DNA from: Candidatus Hydrogenedentota bacterium
Lineage (GTDB): Bacteria; Hydrogenedentota; Hydrogenedentia; Hydrogenedentales; SLHB01
Assembly: GCA_045863335.1 (NCBI GenBank)
Contig: BTVY01000004.1
Coordinates: forward strand, 1-64,000
Direction of reading: 5' to 3'
Length of the DNA: 64,000 bases
In this document: in pieces, positions 2,371 through 43,991 of the stretch
How the letters are laid out: each line of letters starts with the position of its first letter
Numbering within the stretch: position 1 is the stretch's first letter
The notes under the pieces: model-generated
What the model was told of the DNA's origin: nothing
Database searches by the model: none
What the model saw: only the letters and a program-made list of their open reading frames with translations
Made by a program: the position numbers and the translations under genes

Positions 2371-2857
2371 GTGATGCTCCCTTTCATTGCGAATGGTGCG
2401 CCGAAAACGATACCCCTAGTCGGGGCACAAAAATGCCACCAGTCCCGCTACCTTGCGCACGCAGATGGCGCTAATTCTTTCACGAATCGCCGCAAGTGTC
2501 AATTCTGGAACGATCTGGGCGCGGCGCGGGCGGTCACCACAGCGGTGCGGCGTGTAGCACACAGGCGCGCACGATGGTTCCCAAGACCTGCGAGCGCAGC
2601 GGAATCGCCTATTGTGGTGCAGCCTTCCAGCCTGCACCACAACCCGGACCACCGAGGAATCTCCCCCCGATGGTCTGTCCCTGATTTGCCCGTTCTTCCG
2701 TTGGTCGATTGGGTTTCCTCGATGGGTCATCTTCTGGTCCGCACGCAATCCGCTTGGGGTTTGAACCTGCGGCGGGTACAACCTCGCCGAGTTCCCGTCA
2801 ACCGCCTCCACCGCCCGGTCGTTTTCCTTGTGTCGAGAGTAGATACGAGATCCAGCC

Positions 2858-3154
2858 ATGACCGAAAGAGAACTTAGTAGCCGGCGAGACGTAGCCATTT
2901 CCGTAGTCCTCTTTTTACCAACGTGGAGCGAGGCGGTATTTCATGACCTCGTTTCCTTCTCTCGGCTCCACGGGGTGCACGTCTTTGGCCCGCTCTATGG
3001 TCTTACCTTCTTTGTTCTGACGTATGCCCTGTCCTTTGGATTTGCATTATCCGCTTTGCGCGTAGGGGAAGGGTCCGGGCGGTTCATGGGGGGCGTTATA
3101 CTCGGAGCGGAAGTTGCTTTAGCCATCGCGTGGTGCATGCCCCGCTTTAAATGA
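2858..3154 (+). CDS. Small membrane protein, paralog of the next ORF
   Basis: Three hydrophobic segments; shares SRR.AIS..F.PTWS and FGFALSA.R..EG.GR.MG with 3151-3486. Confidence 0.6.
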   Translation: MTERELSSRRDVAISVVLFLPTWSEAVFHDLVSFSRLHGVHVFGPLYGLTFFVLTYALSFGFALSALRVGEGSGRFMGGVILGAEVALAIAWCMPRFK

Positions 3155-3486
3155 TCGTCACTTCAGAGGAGAAGTCTCGCGTGACTGATGGAGCGCGCAG
3201 GAGCCGGCGAGAGATCGCCATTTCGATGATCTTTTTCATGCCAACCTGGTCTCTTTGGGTACTCCAGGAACACCACCCGCTGCTTCCGCTTTGTCTGACG
3301 CTTTTCGGTCGTGGCCACTTGCTGGCATTGCTCTACTTCAGTTACACAATGGCTTTCGGATTTGCACTATCCGCCGCGAGGATGGACGAAGGGATGGGAC
3401 GAAAGATGGGATTCATTGCGCTCTGCGCAGTATCGATCGTTGGCCTTGCCTTTGGCTTCATGTTGCTACGACCAAACGTCGGTTAA
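3151..3486 (+). CDS. Small membrane protein, paralog of the previous ORF
   Basis: Same shared motifs; directly follows 2858-3154. Confidence 0.6.
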   Translation: MIVTSEEKSRVTDGARRSRREIAISMIFFMPTWSLWVLQEHHPLLPLCLTLFGRGHLLALLYFSYTMAFGFALSAARMDEGMGRKMGFIALCAVSIVGLAFGFMLLRPNVG

Positions 3487-26308: not shown

Positions 26309-26435
26309 CAGTGGACTTCGGGGACTTCACCTGGAGTCCTACCAGCCTCTTGCCAATCTCCCTCTGTCCGATAGAATGGAATCACCCCGGCAAGCATTAC
26401 CCCCAAAGTTCGAAGTCTGGCTCGATACGGGGCAC
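26309..26435. repeat. Array repeat R1 (GACTTC iterons + motif + internally deleted recombinase tail + att core)
   Basis: gtggacttcggggacttcacctgg...ttgccaatctccctctgtccgatagaatggaat-caccccggcaagcatt...aaagttcgaagtctggctcgatacggggcac. Confidence 0.9.
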
Positions 26436-37549: not shown

Positions 37550-37801
37550 CAGTAGACTTCGAGACTTCAGGGACTTCACCCGGGGCCTGGTCTCCCCCTT
37601 GCCAATCTCCCCCTGTCCGATAGAATGGAATGGCCCATCGAGTCAGTCTGAAAAATCGTTTTCCTCTTGACCACCTTCCGGCAAAATGACGTTTTCCTCG
37701 GCAGTTGTACGGCAATGTTTGATCACTCCGGCAAGCATTACCTCCAAAGTTCGAAGTCTGCCTCGATACGGGTCACAATAAGCCCAAACTTCGAACTTTA
37801 G
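37550..37801. repeat. Array repeat R3 (complete; att with 12-bp inverted arms)
   Basis: Three GACTTC, conserved motif, open 43-codon recombinase tail, AAAGTTCGAAGT (37746-57) and ACTTCGAACTTT (37788-99). Confidence 0.92.
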
Positions 37802-39086: not shown

Positions 39087-39312
39087 CAGTAGACTTCCGG
39101 ACTTCGGGGACTTCACCTGGGGTCTACCCACCTCTTGCCAATCTCCCTCTGTCCGATAGAATGAAGTGGCCGATAGGATTAGTCTAAAAACTCCTCTTCC
39201 TCTTGACCATCCTTCGGTACCGAAGCAAAATCAGCCATGTGTGTACCGCAATATTCGACCACTCCGGCAAAGATTGAGTCCAAAGTTCGAAACCTGCCTC
39301 TATACGGGTCAC
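39087..39312. repeat. Array repeat R4 (complete, diverged tail)
   Basis: GACTTC x3, ttgccaatctccctctgtccgatagaatg, tail DPYRGRFRTLDSIFAGVVEYC...FLD*, ctgcctctatacgggtcac. Confidence 0.92.
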
Positions 39313-39385: not shown

Positions 39386-39541
39386 CTACTTAGTCTGGTT
39401 GTTCTGATACTCCGATTCCTCGACTATTTTATAGGCAACCTCGACAAACCGCCTGAGATTCTCTTCGGCTGCCTCAAGCCCATTATCCGAGAGTTGAGGG
39501 AACAATCGTCTTAATCGATTAAGACTTTCCTTGTGGGTCAT
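39386..39541 (-). CDS. Small protein, paralog of 42325-42564
   Basis: L.P.LS...LE.AEENLRRFVEVA shared with 42325-42564. Confidence 0.75.
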   Translation of the reverse strand: MTHKESLNRLRRLFPQLSDNGLEAAEENLRRFVEVAYKIVEESEYQNNQTK

Positions 39542-39579
39542 ATAAATCAAGGGATTATGGTTTATACACATCGACCATC

Positions 39580-39607
39580 TTGACAATCCCACCAAACCCG
39601 CTAGAAT
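39580..39607 (+). promoter_or_regulatory. Sigma70-type promoter
   Basis: TTGACA-16 nt-TAGAAT. Confidence 0.7.
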
Positions 39608-39612
39608 GAAGA

Positions 39613-39699
39613 TGTGCTTGTGGGCGCAAGCCCCGTTCAGCTAAGGATTTCCTAAGCTGAAGGCAAGCACACCAAAGGAGCCCCTGTGGGGGCTTTTTT
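39613..39699 (+). ncRNA. Putative small structured RNA (three-way junction plus terminator)
   Basis: P1 TGTGCTTG/CAAGCACA, P2 GGGC-GCAA-GCCC, P3 TTCAGCTAAGG-ATTT-CCTAAGCTGAA, then AGCCCC..GGGGCT-TTTTT; no ORF. Confidence 0.65.
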
Positions 39700-39701
39700 G
39701 G

Positions 39702-40163
39702 TTACTCATCTTCGATATTCTTGTCATGTAACCGTTGGCCATTCTTGAGTTTTGAATCCGGCATGACGCTCCAGAAAATAATATTGCCGTCACCAATCCG
39801 TCTGAGAATTACCCGGATCTTGATTTTATTCTGGCCAGTGATGGCGGCGAAGCCCCAGTAGGTAGTCTGCTTCAAGGCAGTGAAGCCACTTTTGGATTTC
39901 TTGCCAATCGGACTCATCGTTTCGCGGAATTCTTGAAGAGTTCCTGATTTCCGAATCACATCAAGCGCTAGTGGCAGCAGGCGGAATTTAAGCATCTGCT
40001 CATCCTTGGACCGCTCTCGCCTGGCTGAAAATTGAAGATGATGAAAACCGTCCGAATTGAGTCTAATCGGAGACTGAAAATAAGGGCAGAGGATCTCCTT
40101 CTGGCGGGAGTAGATAGTCTCGGCCTTACGTTTGTATTCGGCGAACTTTTCCGCTTCAATCAT
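39702..40163 (-). CDS. Basic hypothetical protein, possibly a BECR/RelE-fold RNase toxin
   Basis: GFHHL motif, K/R-rich, C-terminal beta-meander IRVILRRIGDGNIIFWSVMP; the fold call is inference. Confidence 0.6.
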   Translation of the reverse strand: MIEAEKFAEYKRKAETIYSRQKEILCPYFQSPIRLNSDGFHHLQFSARRERSKDEQMLKFRLLPLALDVIRKSGTLQEFRETMSPIGKKSKSGFTALKQTTYWGFAAITGQNKIKIRVILRRIGDGNIIFWSVMPDSKLKNGQRLHDKNIEDE

Positions 40164-40200
40164 AGCGTCATCATAATATCGGCAAAAGCCGAGTCTGCCA

Positions 40201-40268
40201 AGTAGACTTCAAGACTTCAGGGACTTCACCTGGGGCGTACCCGCCTTTGCTAATCCTCCTTTTATCCA
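40201..40268. repeat. Array repeat R5 (iteron half only)
   Basis: agtagacttcaagacttcagggacttcacctgggg plus a degenerate ttgctaatcctcctttatcc. Confidence 0.8.
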
Positions 40269-40365
40269 AATGTGTGTGCACATTACCATAGACCCTTGAC
40301 GCGATTTGTAAGACTGGTAGTATTGACTCTAGATTCCACAACTAGAACCTAAGAGGAGAAATGAT

Positions 40366-40620
40366 ATGTTACTCAACAACACGGAGTTTTGGCTACTTGA
40401 GCACATCGAAAGAAATCAAACTGTGCCCAAAGAACTGTGCAACTTAGCCCGCAAGCTTGCGTCGTTAGGATTGCTTTGTCTTGGCTACCACAGAGACGGG
40501 ACTAAGGTTAAGGAGACGGGTAGTTTAACTTTCTTGGGGCGGCAGATTGTGAGATTGGAACGAATTGAGCGTAGTCCGTTTCGGTGCGCTCTTCAATCTT
40601 TCTTTGCACCTTTTATTTGA
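40366..40620 (+). CDS. Small hypothetical protein inserted between R5 and R6
   Basis: RBS gaggag; promoter-like TTGAC boxes upstream; hairpin plus T-run downstream. Confidence 0.6.
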   Translation: MLLNNTEFWLLEHIERNQTVPKELCNLARKLASLGLLCLGYHRDGTKVKETGSLTFLGRQIVRLERIERSPFRCALQSFFAPFI

Positions 40621-40718: not shown

Positions 40719-40899
40719 CTCTTGCCAATCTCCCCCTGTCCGATAGAATGGAATGGCCCATAGAGTCAGTCTGAAAAATAGTCTTCCTCTTGACCGCCTT
40801 CCGACACCATGTCCATATTTTCCACATTTGTACGGCAATGTTTGATCACCCCGGCAAGCATTGCCTCCAAAGTTCGAAGTCTGCCTCGATACGGGTCAC
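40719..40899. repeat. Array repeat R6 (native 3' end of recombinase 2 with att core)
   Basis: Closely matches R3; core aaagttcgaagtctgcctcgatacgggtcac at 40869-40899. Confidence 0.92.
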
Positions 40900-42328
40900 C
40901 GTTTGTCGGTTTTCGCCGATTAGCGATGATGTCGAAGGGAGAGGATAGCTCAACCACAACGTTTCTTTCGTTCACCGCCAGGTTCGAAGTCAGCGTTCCG
41001 AGCAATTCTCGCTTCGTGTCTTTTAGAGCCATTTCGTAAAGCACTGGAGCCGAATTTGCCCGTTCGAAGATCTCACGCACCCGATATAGGACATCATTTG
41101 CAGAGGACTCCAATTCTGTCCGGGCTTTTTCAGCCGCCATCCGGTCGGCAATCAGGTTCTCCTTTCTTTCTTCATACATTTTGCGGTCAATAGCCTGATC
41201 GAGATAGGCGTCGGTCAGTCGGTTGAGTCTGTCTGTGACTCGTTTAATCCGAAGTTCCAGGGCTTTGGTCAGTCCGGCTTTCGTTTCTAACCACGACGCC
41301 CGATGCGCATCGATGAGTTGGGTCAACTTCTTCCTTTCGCGATCGGAGAATTCCAGAGAGCCTAGTGTTGCGACTACCGCTACATCTATGGCTTCCTCAC
41401 GGACGCCTTTCGTCGGACAAGTTCGAGAGTGGCACCGGTAGTAAGTGTGCCCCTTCTGGCATTCCCCAGACATCGTATAGCCGCAATGACGGCATGTGAT
41501 GAGTTTTCGGTAGAGGAAGCTATTTCTTCGCGTGCGAACGGGTGTCCGGCCGGTGAGAATGGCTTGAACACGGTCAAAGACGATACGGCTGATTAAAGGT
41601 TCATGATTGCCCTCGAAAACTTCGCGGGTTCGGGCGAGTCGGATCAGACCCGTATAGAAGGGATTGTTCAAGAGCCTTGAAATGCCGTTCAGCGAAATAC
41701 TCGTTCCGTGACGGTTACGAAGGCCTGATTGATGCAATTCCGCCCGAAGCGTGTCCAGCGTATATCGGCCGGTGGCGTACAGATCAAAAGCCCGCTTCAC
41801 CGACGGTGCCGTCGATGGGTCGAGAGTCTTCTTGGCGCCACCGCCATTATCCAAGTATCCAAGTGGGGCAGGCAACGGATAAAACCCTTGTTTCAGCCGG
41901 CCATAGAAGCCCTTGCGGCTTTCCTCTCGGAGATTCCGAATGTAGTCAGCAGCAACGACAGCCTGAATGTCTGCCGATAATCTTCCGCCACGCGTGTGCA
42001 GATCCAAGCCTTCATTCGCAAAGTGGATCTTTATCCCCCTATCGATGAGTTCACCGAGCTTTGCCCAGTCGCGTAGATTCCGGGCGCTACGGTCGATCTT
42101 GTGAATGACGATTCCGCTGGCCTTCCCTTGTCTTAACCGGCTTAACATTTGGCCGAAGACCGGCCGACCGCTCTTGGCCGCTGTCTGGCGCTCTTCGAAC
42201 CATTCCACGATCTCTAACGATTCGCGCTCGCAGTAGCGCACAATGGCGTCTCGTTGCTCCTGGAGCGAAACGCCCTTTTCTCCTTGTTTGACGGTGGATA
42301 CGCGCACATAGGCGAAGACTTTGTTCAT
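40766..42328 (-). CDS. Large serine recombinase 2
   Basis: YVRVST..Q, HKIDRSARN, L.NPFY.G, Zn ribbon CRHCG...YYRC...C, coiled coil. Confidence 0.95.
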   Translation of the reverse strand: MNKVFAYVRVSTVKQGEKGVSLQEQRDAIVRYCERESLEIVEWFEERQTAAKSGRPVFGQMLSRLRQGKASGIVIHKIDRSARNLRDWAKLGELIDRGIKIHFANEGLDLHTRGGRLSADIQAVVAADYIRNLREESRKGFYGRLKQGFYPLPAPLGYLDNGGGAKKTLDPSTAPSVKRAFDLYATGRYTLDTLRAELHQSGLRNRHGTSISLNGISRLLNNPFYTGLIRLARTREVFEGNHEPLISRIVFDRVQAILTGRTPVRTRRNSFLYRKLITCRHCGYTMSGECQKGHTYYRCHSRTCPTKGVREEAIDVAVVATLGSLEFSDRERKKLTQLIDAHRASWLETKAGLTKALELRIKRVTDRLNRLTDAYLDQAIDRKMYEERKENLIADRMAAEKARTELESSANDVLYRVREIFERANSAPVLYEMALKDTKRELLGTLTSNLAVNERNVVVELSSPFDIIANRRKPTNGDPYRGRLRTLEAMLAGVIKHCRTNVENMDMVSEGGQEEDYFSD

Positions 42329-42564
42329 CGTCGCTTTGGATTAGTGATTGGTGATGATCGGATCGTAGATCGCGATTCGGAATCTGTCAACGGTGGGGTT
42401 GTGGACTGATTCACGCTATCTTGTTCGGCCTGCTCACAGATGCGGATAGCGACCTCCACAAACCGCCGGAGATTCTCCTCCGCGATCTCCAATTGTTCTT
42501 CGGAAAGCTCTGGGTACAGTCCGGCCAATTCCGCCCGCGAAGGCCTCTCCTTGTCGCTATTCAT
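42325..42564 (-). CDS. Small protein translationally coupled to recombinase 2
   Basis: ATGA overlap with the recombinase start; paralog at 39386-39541. Confidence 0.7.
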   Translation of the reverse strand: MNSDKERPSRAELAGLYPELSEEQLEIAEENLRRFVEVAIRICEQAEQDSVNQSTTPPLTDSESRSTIRSSPITNPKRR

Positions 42565-42677
42565 GACTGCAGTTTGCCTGAAACGAAATGTGAGAGAGAG
42601 GCAGTGCTTCTTTACCCATCCAACAAGATCGAACGCCTACGATGCCCTCGCCCGGACCGGCACAATGGTCACACACT

Positions 42678-43991
42678 ATGGCTAAGTCATACAAAGAATC
42701 ATCCCTCAGTCTGGCAAAGGCGTCTCCATCCAAACCGCTCGCTTCGGCAACCCTTGCGGACGGTGGTCTACTGGAGACCCTCTACGATCCAATCGAGAAG
42801 CGGACAAGTTTTTGTCTCGCGAGGGAAGGCAAATGGAAGACTGCTTCGGAGATCGTGATCGATCGTCAGAAGTTTGTGCCGTATTCGCCGGAGAATAATC
42901 TTATCCAACACGGCACGGTACTGTTTCCTTCGGCCGTGGAAGAGTACGGAACCGAAGCGGAGTTGGTACAAGACATCAGGGAGTTCATTCGCCGCTATGT
43001 GGACTTGTCTCCACTTTTCGAAGAGGTTGCCGCCTATTACGTCCTGTTCACGTGGCTCTACGATAGTTTCAATGAATTGCCATATCTCCGCGCAATGGGT
43101 GACTACGGCTCGGGTAAGACTCGGTTCCTGCTAACGGTTGGGTCTATCTGCTATCTGCCTATCTTTGCGAGTGGTGCTTCCACCGTCTCACCCTTGTTCC
43201 GAATCCTGGATGCGTTTCGGGGTACGCTCATCATTGACGAGGCCGACCTTCGTTGGAGTGATGAGCGGGCGGATATGGTCAAAATCCTGAACAACGGGAA
43301 TGCGCGCGGGTTCCCGGTACTACGAACGGAACTCACACCTACTCGGGAATTAAACCCCGTCGCGTACTCCGTATTCGGACCCAAGTTGGTGGCGACACGC
43401 GCTGAATTCAGCGACAAGGCGCTGGAAAGCCGGTTTCTAACCGAACGGATGGGCGTACGCCCGCTCCGAGCGGATATCCCTATCAACCTACCCAAATCGC
43501 TTTGGCAGGAAGCCCGAAATCTGCGTAACAAGCTGCTTGCTTTTCGTATTCGAAATCATTCGCTCGTGCGGCCCCTGGAGGGTGTCGCAGACGCCAATTT
43601 AGAGCCCAGACTGAACCAGATATTTTCCCCGCTCCTAAGTGTGATCCAGGAACCCGAGGCACGTGATAAGATTCGGTCACTCATCCGGCAATACAACCGG
43701 CAGGTGATTTCCGAGCGGGGTATGACGGCGGAGGCACAAGTTTTGGAGGTGATGCGTGCGCTTCTGAACGCCAACGAACCACTGTCTGTTAAGGTCATAA
43801 CGGAACGTTTCGCCAATCTTCATGAAGCCGAGTATCAACGAAAGATCACGCCAAGATGGATTGGTTGGCTTATCCGGCAGCGCTTGGGCTTCTCGACAAA
43901 CAAGACCAACGGAACTTTTGTCGTATCAAACCTCGATCCCGAAGTTCTTGAGAGATTGGAAGCAAAGTATGGTTTGAAGTCGCTCGATTAA
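42678..43991 (+). CDS. Replication-associated P-loop helicase-like protein (DUF3631-like)
   Basis: PYL...GDYGSGKTR, LFR......TLIIDEAD, ILN.G, ALESRFL; C-terminal wHTH-like region. Confidence 0.7.
   Translation: MAKSYKESSLSLAKASPSKPLASATLADGGLLETLYDPIEKRTSFCLAREGKWKTASEIVIDRQKFVPYSPENNLIQHGTVLFPSAVEEYGTEAELVQDIREFIRRYVDLSPLFEEVAAYYVLFTWLYDSFNELPYLRAMGDYGSGKTRFLLTVGSICYLPIFASGASTVSPLFRILDAFRGTLIIDEADLRWSDERADMVKILNNGNARGFPVLRTELTPTRELNPVAYSVFGPKLVATRAEFSDKALESRFLTERMGVRPLRADIPINLPKSLWQEARNLRNKLLAFRIRNHSLVRPLEGVADANLEPRLNQIFSPLLSVIQEPEARDKIRSLIRQYNRQVISERGMTAEAQVLEVMRALLNANEPLSVKVITERFANLHEAEYQRKITPRWIGWLIRQRLGFSTNKTNGTFVVSNLDPEVLERLEAKYGLKSLD

Follow-up and report, generated by a model that had tools for sequence, protein, structure and literature searches.

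The described systems closest to the locus reported here combine a protein effector with the gene of an adjoining noncoding RNA (ncRNA). In the classical type III systems ToxIN, CptIN and TenpIN, the RNAs are tandem repeats processed to pseudoknots, and one promoter lies upstream of the toxin (PMC3401426). In AvcID, also a type III system, the ncRNA AvcI binds and inhibits AvcD, and the toxin is freed when transcription stops (PMC10511110). Here, we describe a module of about 640 bp in a 64,000-nt stretch of contig BTVY01000004.1, from a Candidatus Hydrogenedentota bacterium; the whole stretch is hereafter designated as the window, and all coordinates are positions in it. At 39562-40201, a gene for a small structured RNA on the + strand converges with a gene for a basic 153-aa protein on the - strand, the only such copy in the window. 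The RNA defines a family of structured RNAs that is new and has no entry in Rfam 15, with about 100 examples, clear subtypes and full covariation support, and the view that the paired RNA and protein genes form one functional unit is strongly supported. With moderate confidence, we read the pair as a type III-like toxin-antitoxin (TA) module, in which one structured RNA would neutralise a toxin with a RelE fold.

The likeness to AvcID lies in the association of a protein effector with an adjoining ncRNA gene; moreover, AvcI is likewise not described as a repeat array (PMC10511110). AvcD is a deoxycytidylate deaminase, whereas a RelE-like fold is predicted for the protein studied here, and the RNA of the present module is a three-way junction that has its own promoter and is mostly convergent with the protein gene. 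AvcID is the nearest precedent of the module. With ToxIN, CptIN and TenpIN, the module shares the combination of a protein (an endoribonuclease in those systems) and a structured RNA with a terminator between them; among the homologous loci, the order RNA, terminator, gene is found in L012 and L016 alone. It differs from these systems by the lack of repeats, by the presence of two promoters and by a convergent arrangement in 78 of the 80 loci analysed. Neither ToxN, CptN nor TenpN is recognized as a sequence family in the protein (Pfam and PADLOC, E <= 1), and ToxN-type chains are not among the structural matches listed. The module thus falls outside the classical definition of type III systems, which comprises a repeat array, a single promoter and a ToxN-type toxin. 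No description of this RNA, of the protein family or of an RNA antidote for a RelE-fold toxin was found in the literature searched.

A new family of structured RNAs

Folding of 39610-39705 gave a three-way junction with a terminator behind it, at a predicted free energy of -53.5 kcal/mol (z-score -6.96), and none of 200 shuffled sequences was as stable. An initial annotation of this DNA, made from its letters, had proposed a junction with a GCAA-capped P2 and a P3 containing one mismatch, and the same helices were recovered at the same places. P2 (GGGC-GCAA-GCCC) pairs 39622-39625 with 39630-39633 around the GCAA loop at 39626-39629, and P3 pairs 39636-39646 with 39651-39661 through 10 pairs and a conserved A.A mismatch (39643/39654), closed by a loop at 39647-39650. 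P1 had been counted as 8 bp; seven conserved pairs (GUGCUUG/CAAGCAC, 39614-39620 with 39664-39670) hold, and the eighth (U.G) is not kept in other members of the family. The absence of tandem repeats of the ToxI type, also part of that annotation, agrees with the output of Tandem Repeats Finder, which reported no array in 39560-39701 and a single row at 40204-40228, upstream of the protein gene.

Several details of this fold deserve mention. In the middle of P3, the motif 5'-CUAAG-3' occurs on both strands, symmetric around the conserved A.A mismatch; together with the GNRA loop of P2, this symmetric motif could mark a tetraloop contact or, as a speculation, a protein-dimer site. A tRNA-like 3' end, suggested by ACCA after P1 in the window, was considered and rejected: it is not conserved, and most members have AACAAA at this place, which is the A tract of the terminator.

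No match at the gathering score was found with Rfam 15 in the whole window, and a permissive Rfam scan of 39400-40400 gave Atu_C8 as its best model, at 22.6 bits against a cut-off of 50, a score resting on P1 and the terminator. Aptamers typically combine such a junction, with conserved bases at its centre, with a terminator directly behind it, and the junction might be a riboswitch-like ligand sensor that modulates this terminator, with read-through yielding an antisense RNA against the protein gene. We hold this to be very improbable: no alternative antiterminator pairing is evident and the A-rich linker between P1 and the terminator stem pairs with the T tract, read-through in L012 and L016 would give sense RNA, and no Rfam riboswitch was matched.

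Homologous loci were collected with the protein sequence in a scan of one genome per species, which gave 119 confirmed loci; the best 80 were analysed, with taxa read from record titles. The close RNA alignment (n=75) comprises the window and 74 of these loci, leaving out L009 (missed by the search pattern), L018, L019, L026 and L032 (RNAs cut by contig ends) and L075 (identical to L074). In this set, 96.8% of the cells in the three helices were paired and 8 of the 21 pairs had changed on both sides; the covariation score of 0.115 compares with 0.065 in shuffles, none of 500 reaching the observed value, and slid controls paired 54% of cells at most. RNAalifold independently recovered P1, P2 and the lower part of P3 from the RNA alignment. 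As many as 25 columns are invariant among the 75 sequences, helical positions included, and variability is confined to the apical loop of P3, with no variable segment resembling a guide.

The second alignment was built from the 19 best diverged RNAs. Here, 93.2% of cells were paired, all 21 pairs had changed on both sides and the covariation score was 0.583 against 0.235 in shuffles (0/500 reaching 0.583), with at most 49% of cells paired in slid controls; the fit of this alignment to a covariance model biases these values towards the structure. When folded singly, 12 of 12 RNAs (the window and 11 diverged members) formed a three-way junction, each with a promoter before it and a terminator behind it. 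The diverged subtype is characterized by P2 loops of the UUCG or YYUG type instead of GNRA, and by ACGGCU/AGCUGU in P3. Covariation beside homologues of the protein gene, which the initial annotation had put forward as a check, was therefore found as compensatory changes in all three helices over about 100 loci, and conservation and covariation on this scale place the RNA structure far beyond chance.

The + strand is supported as the transcribed one by promoters at a fixed distance, by T runs after the hairpin and by cells that are G.U on this strand (28 among the close RNAs, 26 among the diverged ones); the same-strand loci L012 and L016 likewise keep the RNA's own promoter and terminator. 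These data also bear on whether the conserved 60 bp might act as DNA, for instance as a site at which a mobile element recombines, replicates or is bound by a protein. The arms of P3 are almost perfect inverted repeats of each other, a motif resembling a DnaA box is close by, and a large serine recombinase gene adjoins the module in the window, L070 and L072. However, essentially every locus has a promoter at a fixed distance and a terminator behind the RNA core, the compensatory changes maintain pairing in all three helices with G.U pairs that are strand-specific, and no recombinase is conserved beside the module, so that we give a DNA site next to no credence.

Linkage of the RNA and protein genes across genomes

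Short-word BLAST searches with 39560-39720 revealed the RNA core next to the protein gene in 80/80 loci, at 86-100% identity over 21-71 nt. Core identity was about 90% or more in most loci (below 93% in 28 of the 80 best matches), and the proteins were 50-65% identical. The two genes are convergent except in L012 and L016, where the RNA precedes the protein gene by about 70 nt on the same strand. A covariance model built from the RNA core, R1, found exactly one copy in the 6.75-Mb genome to which the window belongs, extra copies being absent by both BLAST and the model, and in five other carrier genomes the number of R1 copies equalled that of protein genes.

Two samples extended this association to diverged genes. 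At the class level, the protein profile matched 13 places in 11 of 151 genomes of one Patescibacteria class. With its speed filters on, R1 gave matches in 6 of the 151 genomes; with the filters removed, it matched at the expected place and on the expected strand at 13/13 protein places, with E-values from 3e-24 to 0.14. These places include 10 diverged genes, nine of them at 22-39% protein identity and one (L112) missed by tblastn. At the phylum level, 30 of 401 Patescibacteria genomes carry a member of the protein family (33 places), and of the 30 loci fetched, 25 have an R1 match where one is expected. Among the loci that R1 missed, L141 and L144 contain by eye promoter-driven convergent three-way junctions, L143 has a promoter followed by hairpins, and L130 has a truncated gene without RNA. 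The locus sets overlap, since G061:C7 and G074:C48 are the places of L010 and L009, and L116 and L119 repeat L113 and L110, respectively.

The type of RNA diverges along with the clade of the protein. Type III systems in the broad sense, in which a bound ncRNA neutralises a protein toxin, call for a dedicated ncRNA gene that adjoins the protein gene and co-occurs with it; such a gene was found at 80/80 loci, 13/13 places and 25/30 loci. With this linkage and co-divergence, the RNA-protein pair proposed initially stands, whereas the TA or abortive-infection function attached to it is one that fits the anatomy.

Two loci show unusual arrangements. In L067 (Patescibacteria), two module subtypes occur in tandem at 1950-2520 and 2764-3316, with proteins 36% and 55% identical to that of the window and an RNA-like sequence behind each. 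In L145 (G545:C19:1-2291), also missed by R1, the distant family member forms one domain of a much longer open frame (at least 763 aa), and no RNA match adjoins it; about 70 residues downstream, this frame contains a ...GTHNF...IVAHNT motif that we take to be Hint- or intein-like.

Promoters, terminator and predicted transcripts

The features of the module are listed in Table 1. Its GC content is 0.478, compared with 0.537 for the window. The initial description of the transcription signals was accurate: the TTGACA and TAGAAT hexamers occupy 39580-39585 and 39602-39607, no + strand open reading frame (ORF) of at least 40 aa runs across the RNA, and the terminator abuts the protein gene, its end at 39701 being one base away from the stop codon of the convergent ORF 39702-40163.

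Table 1. Features of the RNA-protein module and their positions in the window.
Feature	Position	Strand	Remarks
DnaA-box-like 9-mer TTATACACA	39562..39570	+	9 nt 5' of the -35 of the RNA promoter
Sigma-70-type RNA promoter, TTGACA-16 nt-TAGAAT	39580..39607	+	11/12 consensus matches
Small RNA, ~87-89 nt	39613..39701	+	both ends predicted: start ~6-7 nt past the -10, end at the T run
Three-way junction core, 57 nt	39614..39670	+	fold and covariation
Shared, apparently bidirectional intrinsic terminator	39671..39701	both	A-rich tract, stem, loop TGTG, T run
Gene for basic 153-aa protein, pI 9.91	39702..40163	-	
Protein-gene promoter, TTGGCA-17 nt-TATTAT	40173..40201	-	10/12 consensus matches

In the printed upstream sequences of homologous loci, the -35/-10 pair stands at the same distance from P1. 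The terminator stem is formed by 39679-39684 and 39689-39694, and the T run extends to 39699. A prediction program called this terminator on the - strand, and its reading on the + strand (a stem, then TTTTTT) comes from the sequence and the fold. Across the RNA family, the A tract that flanks the terminator pairs with the T tract, and both transcripts could use the terminator; the terminator sequences themselves are not conserved among homologous loci. On the protein side, the -10 ends 9 nt before the ATG and a Shine-Dalgarno sequence is lacking, which suggests a leaderless or almost leaderless mRNA. Among the upstream sequences of 70 homologous loci and the window, many have a TATGAT/TATAAT-like -10 very close to the start codon and likewise lack a Shine-Dalgarno sequence, as judged by eye and uncounted.

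From these signals, we infer the transcription of the small RNA and the ends of its transcript. The sequence occurs in bioreactor or sludge communities, but no match to the RNA stretch was found in the metatranscriptome runs X22 and X23. Contigs of run X20, which come from other organisms and probably represent DNA, show conservation that starts at 39605-39613 and stops at 39670-39677.

Because the genes are convergent and share a terminator, the 3' ends of the two transcripts are complementary. In Bacillus, the 3' ends of convergent type I pairs overlap, and with the same arrangement in 78/80 loci, the RNA might act on the mRNA, as a type I-like antisense RNA or through transcription interference, via the ~30 nt common to the convergent transcripts. 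This reading is weakened by the conserved, covarying junction, which lies outside the overlap, and the sequence of the terminator, where complementarity is confined, is not conserved. In L012 and L016, the RNA is on the same strand, so that no overlap and no complementarity exist, and both genes are intact. In addition, the product is a basic protein of 153 aa (pI 9.91) and not a small membrane peptide. Taken together, control at the mRNA level seems improbable to us.

A DnaA-box-like motif lies beside the -35 of the RNA promoter. The 9-mer TTATNCACA has its single occurrence in the 64-kb window at 39562-39570, which is not significant by itself because 76 of 100 shuffles hold at least one copy. 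A 9-mer with at most one mismatch to TTATCCACA, which we take to be the DnaA-box consensus, lies just 5' of the -35 in 11 of 34 diverged loci and in 30 of the 79 close ones, the expectation for the latter being 0.013 per locus. Such motifs, in either orientation and at a variable gap from the -35, are thus present at about one third of RNA promoters. We infer from this pattern that DnaA may bind the putative box.

The protein family and its predicted fold

A single database search with the 153-aa protein yielded 884 homologues at E <= 0.001 among 907 candidates, with 556 cluster representatives. The protein itself matched no family in Pfam, NCBIfam, PADLOC (all three at E <= 1) or PHROG, and a profile search against PDB sequences returned chance-level rows only. 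Whatever its function, this is a protein superfamily with no curated family at threshold. Three residues, H42, R51 and F130, never vary among the close, diverged and distant members, and Y18, P27, G39, Q56, S73, T75, Q77, G126 and S132 are nearly invariant. Most family proteins end with an acidic tail (IEDE, PEED, LEED) after a poorly modelled stretch, encoded in the window at 39705-39716 on the - strand.

AlphaFold modelled the full-length protein with a pLDDT of 82.5 and residues 22-142, for which a deeper alignment was used, with a pLDDT of 90.1. The trimmed model starts with an N-terminal strand pair (E2-5/E10-13), followed by two helices (H16-23 and H32-51) and four long strands, and RelE-type chains align with it from about residue 9; the full-length model has an extra N-terminal helix at residues 2-20. 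In a VIA-align search with the trimmed model, the first 15 rows were all TA or toxin-immunity entries, as were 22 of 25, these rows being chains of complexes for only part of which the identity of the toxin chain was confirmed. Among the first 15 were contact-dependent inhibition (CDI) proteins, RelBE, BrnT, ParDE, YefM-YoeB, MqsRA, PfiAT, YxiD-YxxD, colicin D and entries named 'sequence-specific ribonuclease'. The best match was 7m5f_C (Z 5.3, rmsd 3.5 A over 86 residues), followed by 6cp9_A, 7vd7_A and the BrnT chain 3u97_A (Z 5.2 each).

These models support weakly a RelE/BrnT/colicin-like (BECR) fold for the protein, a fold in which a strand and two helices precede an antiparallel sheet. 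The designation as a putative RNase, given in the initial annotation, is weakly supported in the same way, through RelE, BrnT, ParE, YoeB, MqsR, CDI and colicin D neighbours with Z-scores of 5.3 at most. The protein resembles RelE/BECR toxins in being small and basic and in its invariant His and Arg, and possibly in the predicted order of secondary structures within residues 22-142. It differs from them by the absence of any Pfam or NCBIfam match, by the low Z-scores (<=5.3) and by the extra N-terminal helix. Furthermore, RelE/BECR toxins usually have a protein antidote or immunity gene, whereas a conserved RNA gene occupies that place here.

Another lead comes from distant relatives. Near full-length matches to LPD3 (PF18798) were obtained for 10 of 26 distant representatives, with E-values of 1.1e-5 to 0.045 and scores of 14.4-26.0 bits, all below the Pfam cut-off of 27; the window's protein had no LPD3 match at E <= 1. 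In BFVD, the top structure matches were LPD3-annotated phage proteins, with E-values of 6.3e-3 to 0.1, probabilities of at most 0.99 and TM 0.40-0.53, and rows of the ESM Atlas carrying LPD3 reached TM 0.54-0.58. The protein may therefore be a distant, sub-threshold relative of LPD3. Yet LPD3 is a domain of giant injected proteins of phages and conjugative elements, whereas the module encodes a stand-alone cellular protein with an RNA partner. The function of the LPD domains of phage polyvalent proteins is described as elusive (PMC5512222).

The same body of evidence accommodates a dedicated ribonucleoprotein (RNP) that is not a TA system. The protein would then need the junction as an obligatory subunit, a scaffold or a cofactor, or have it as its specific substrate, and the complex would serve an accessory function, for example in processing RNA or in interfering with invaders. 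Co-occurrence and co-divergence speak for such a particle exactly as they do for a TA module; the extreme conservation of the RNA would suit a tertiary fold or a large number of specific contacts; the RNA has the look of a stable molecule and not of a labile one; and the distant relatives match LPD3, a phage polyvalent-protein domain whose function is elusive (PMC5512222). However, the RNA has no variable guide-like segment and the structural neighbours of the protein are toxins that act alone. A housekeeping RNP is disfavoured because about 7% of sampled Patescibacteria carry the module and because it jumps between phyla. We regard a non-TA particle as possible, although on the unlikely side.

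Distribution and mobility of the module

According to record titles, most loci belong to Patescibacteria, and others lie on long contigs of Acidobacteriota, Alphaproteobacteria, Chitinophagales and further groups. The protein was found in none of 60 relatives of the window's genome, including 5 genomes of the same genus and 31 others of the same family, and some genomes hold two or three copies of the module. From its occurrence in these sequences, the module appears to be sporadic, horizontally acquired and spread between phyla. It has no conserved neighbour protein: when ORFs of at least 60 aa from 81 loci were clustered, no family occurred in more than 5 loci, clusters of 41 and 14 loci being opposite-strand shadows of the protein gene itself. 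Most flanking ORFs are housekeeping genes, and the few others include recombinases, an integrase, a PIN gene and a restriction-modification gene. A search for empty sites with the G061 family left the flanking gene unmatched in 8 other genomes at E <= 1e-20.

Signs of decay were also observed. G186 contains an orphan RNA, with an intact RNA gene and only the last codons of the protein gene left. Four of the 80 protein genes have one nonsense codon each (L019, L059, L070 and L073); such alleles occur in 3/14 loci of other phyla and 1/66 of the rest, a difference that gives p = 0.016 in Fisher's exact test, made post hoc on title labels. Rows of protein profile matches that contain a single TAA mostly mark natural gene ends; the one exception is G133, which is not a pseudogene because its TAA precedes the start codon.

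A proposed type III-like toxin-antitoxin module

The reading as a TA module with an RNA antidote takes its force from the fact that the usual place of a protein antidote is occupied by a conserved RNA, which co-diverges with the protein and has the stronger promoter. Sporadic carriage, multiple copies, tandem modules, an orphan RNA and nonsense alleles are points for accessory or selfish behaviour. In the proposed mechanism, the RNA would bind the protein directly and restrain a toxic, probably RNA-cleaving, activity, for which H42 and R51 are the candidate catalytic pair. The RNA would be present in excess over the protein, as proposed from a strong RNA promoter on one side and a weaker promoter with leaderless translation on the other. 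When the supply of RNA falls, free protein would arrest the cell. Such a drop might follow a phage-induced shut-off of transcription or loss of the module and, in about one third of modules, a changed occupancy by DnaA of the box beside the -35. The pair would then be a type III-like TA (or abortive-infection) system whose antitoxin is a single, non-repeated RNA.

Several observations weigh against a TA module with an RNA antidote. As for the RNA, it is very stable on paper and has a strong hairpin at its end, whereas known systems have labile antitoxins. A 171-nt contig from an RNA library (run X17) is identical over 39540-39668; it also covers the promoter region and may thus be DNA or another transcript. 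In addition, 18 P3 cells (A.C or C.A) would read as G.U on the opposite strand, which speaks against the + strand as the transcribed one. Regarding the fold, Foldseek searches of PDB with both models gave nothing at E <= 0.001, and the VIA-align Z-scores of 4.5-5.3 lie under the 7-8 that is the tool's common background for unrelated folds, so that the support comes from the coherence of the row list and not from any single score. The genomic context is hardly that of defence islands, as 134 flanking ORFs are mostly housekeeping genes; tblastn searches of plasmid and phage collections gave no match to the protein, and viral contigs gave only two protein matches, of 16 residues each. Finally, losses of the protein gene (four nonsense alleles, one gene missing beside the orphan RNA and one truncated gene), set against no loss of the RNA only, are uninformative because the gene is a mutational target about eight times as large as the RNA core.

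An unlikely further proposal makes the RNA more than an inhibitor, namely a subunit of a small, previously unknown RelE-type RNP, centred on Patescibacteria and exported to other phyla, with the RNA supply wired to the replication initiator DnaA in about one third of members; the particle would sense the replication state of the cell or of an invader and answer with RNA cleavage.

If the module is indeed a TA system, it would represent a new and abundant class of RNA-neutralised toxins, in which the RelE/BECR fold, the best known among toxins and so far seen with protein antidotes, is joined to a single structured RNA, and type III-like logic would extend to the poorly studied and mostly uncultured Patescibacteria. 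It might also provide a functional foothold for the LPD3 domain of phages. With only ~640 bp and a self-contained organization, the module is directly testable in Escherichia coli.

Genomic surroundings in the window

Beside the recombinase operon, a 449-aa ORF (42642-43991, +) contains a P-loop-like motif, GDYGSGKT, and has no Pfam, NCBIfam, PADLOC or PHROG match. The surroundings of the module are further marked by a repeat of about 226 nt, which in this genome is confined to this contig and is present in five whole or partial copies (26314-26435, 37551-37776, 39088-39312, 40201-40236 and 40721-40899). These copies bound units of about 1.1-1.6 kb next to the large serine recombinase gene (40766-42328, -), and the final ~45 codons of this gene, like the tails of two small ORFs, are supplied by the repeat. 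A 484-bp insert with the ORF 40366-40620 apparently splits the last copy. Judged from its layout, this region looks like a cassette array in which the repeats serve as recombination-site-like separators, with the RNA-protein module inside one unit.

The motif AEENLRRFVEV is common to two small ORFs, of which 42325-42564 (-) is directly upstream of the serine recombinase and 39386-39541 (-) lies beside the RNA promoter. Pfam searches gave chance-level rows only for 39386-39595 and none for 42325-42564, and the shorter motif ENLRR[FY] occurs in 2 of 81 loci, those of the window and L011. In the latter, an Adlerbacteria locus, the similar ORF ATENLRRYLKAM lies upstream of the module at 2707-2982. 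The small AEENLRRFVEV ORF may encode an accessory protein of the recombinase element.

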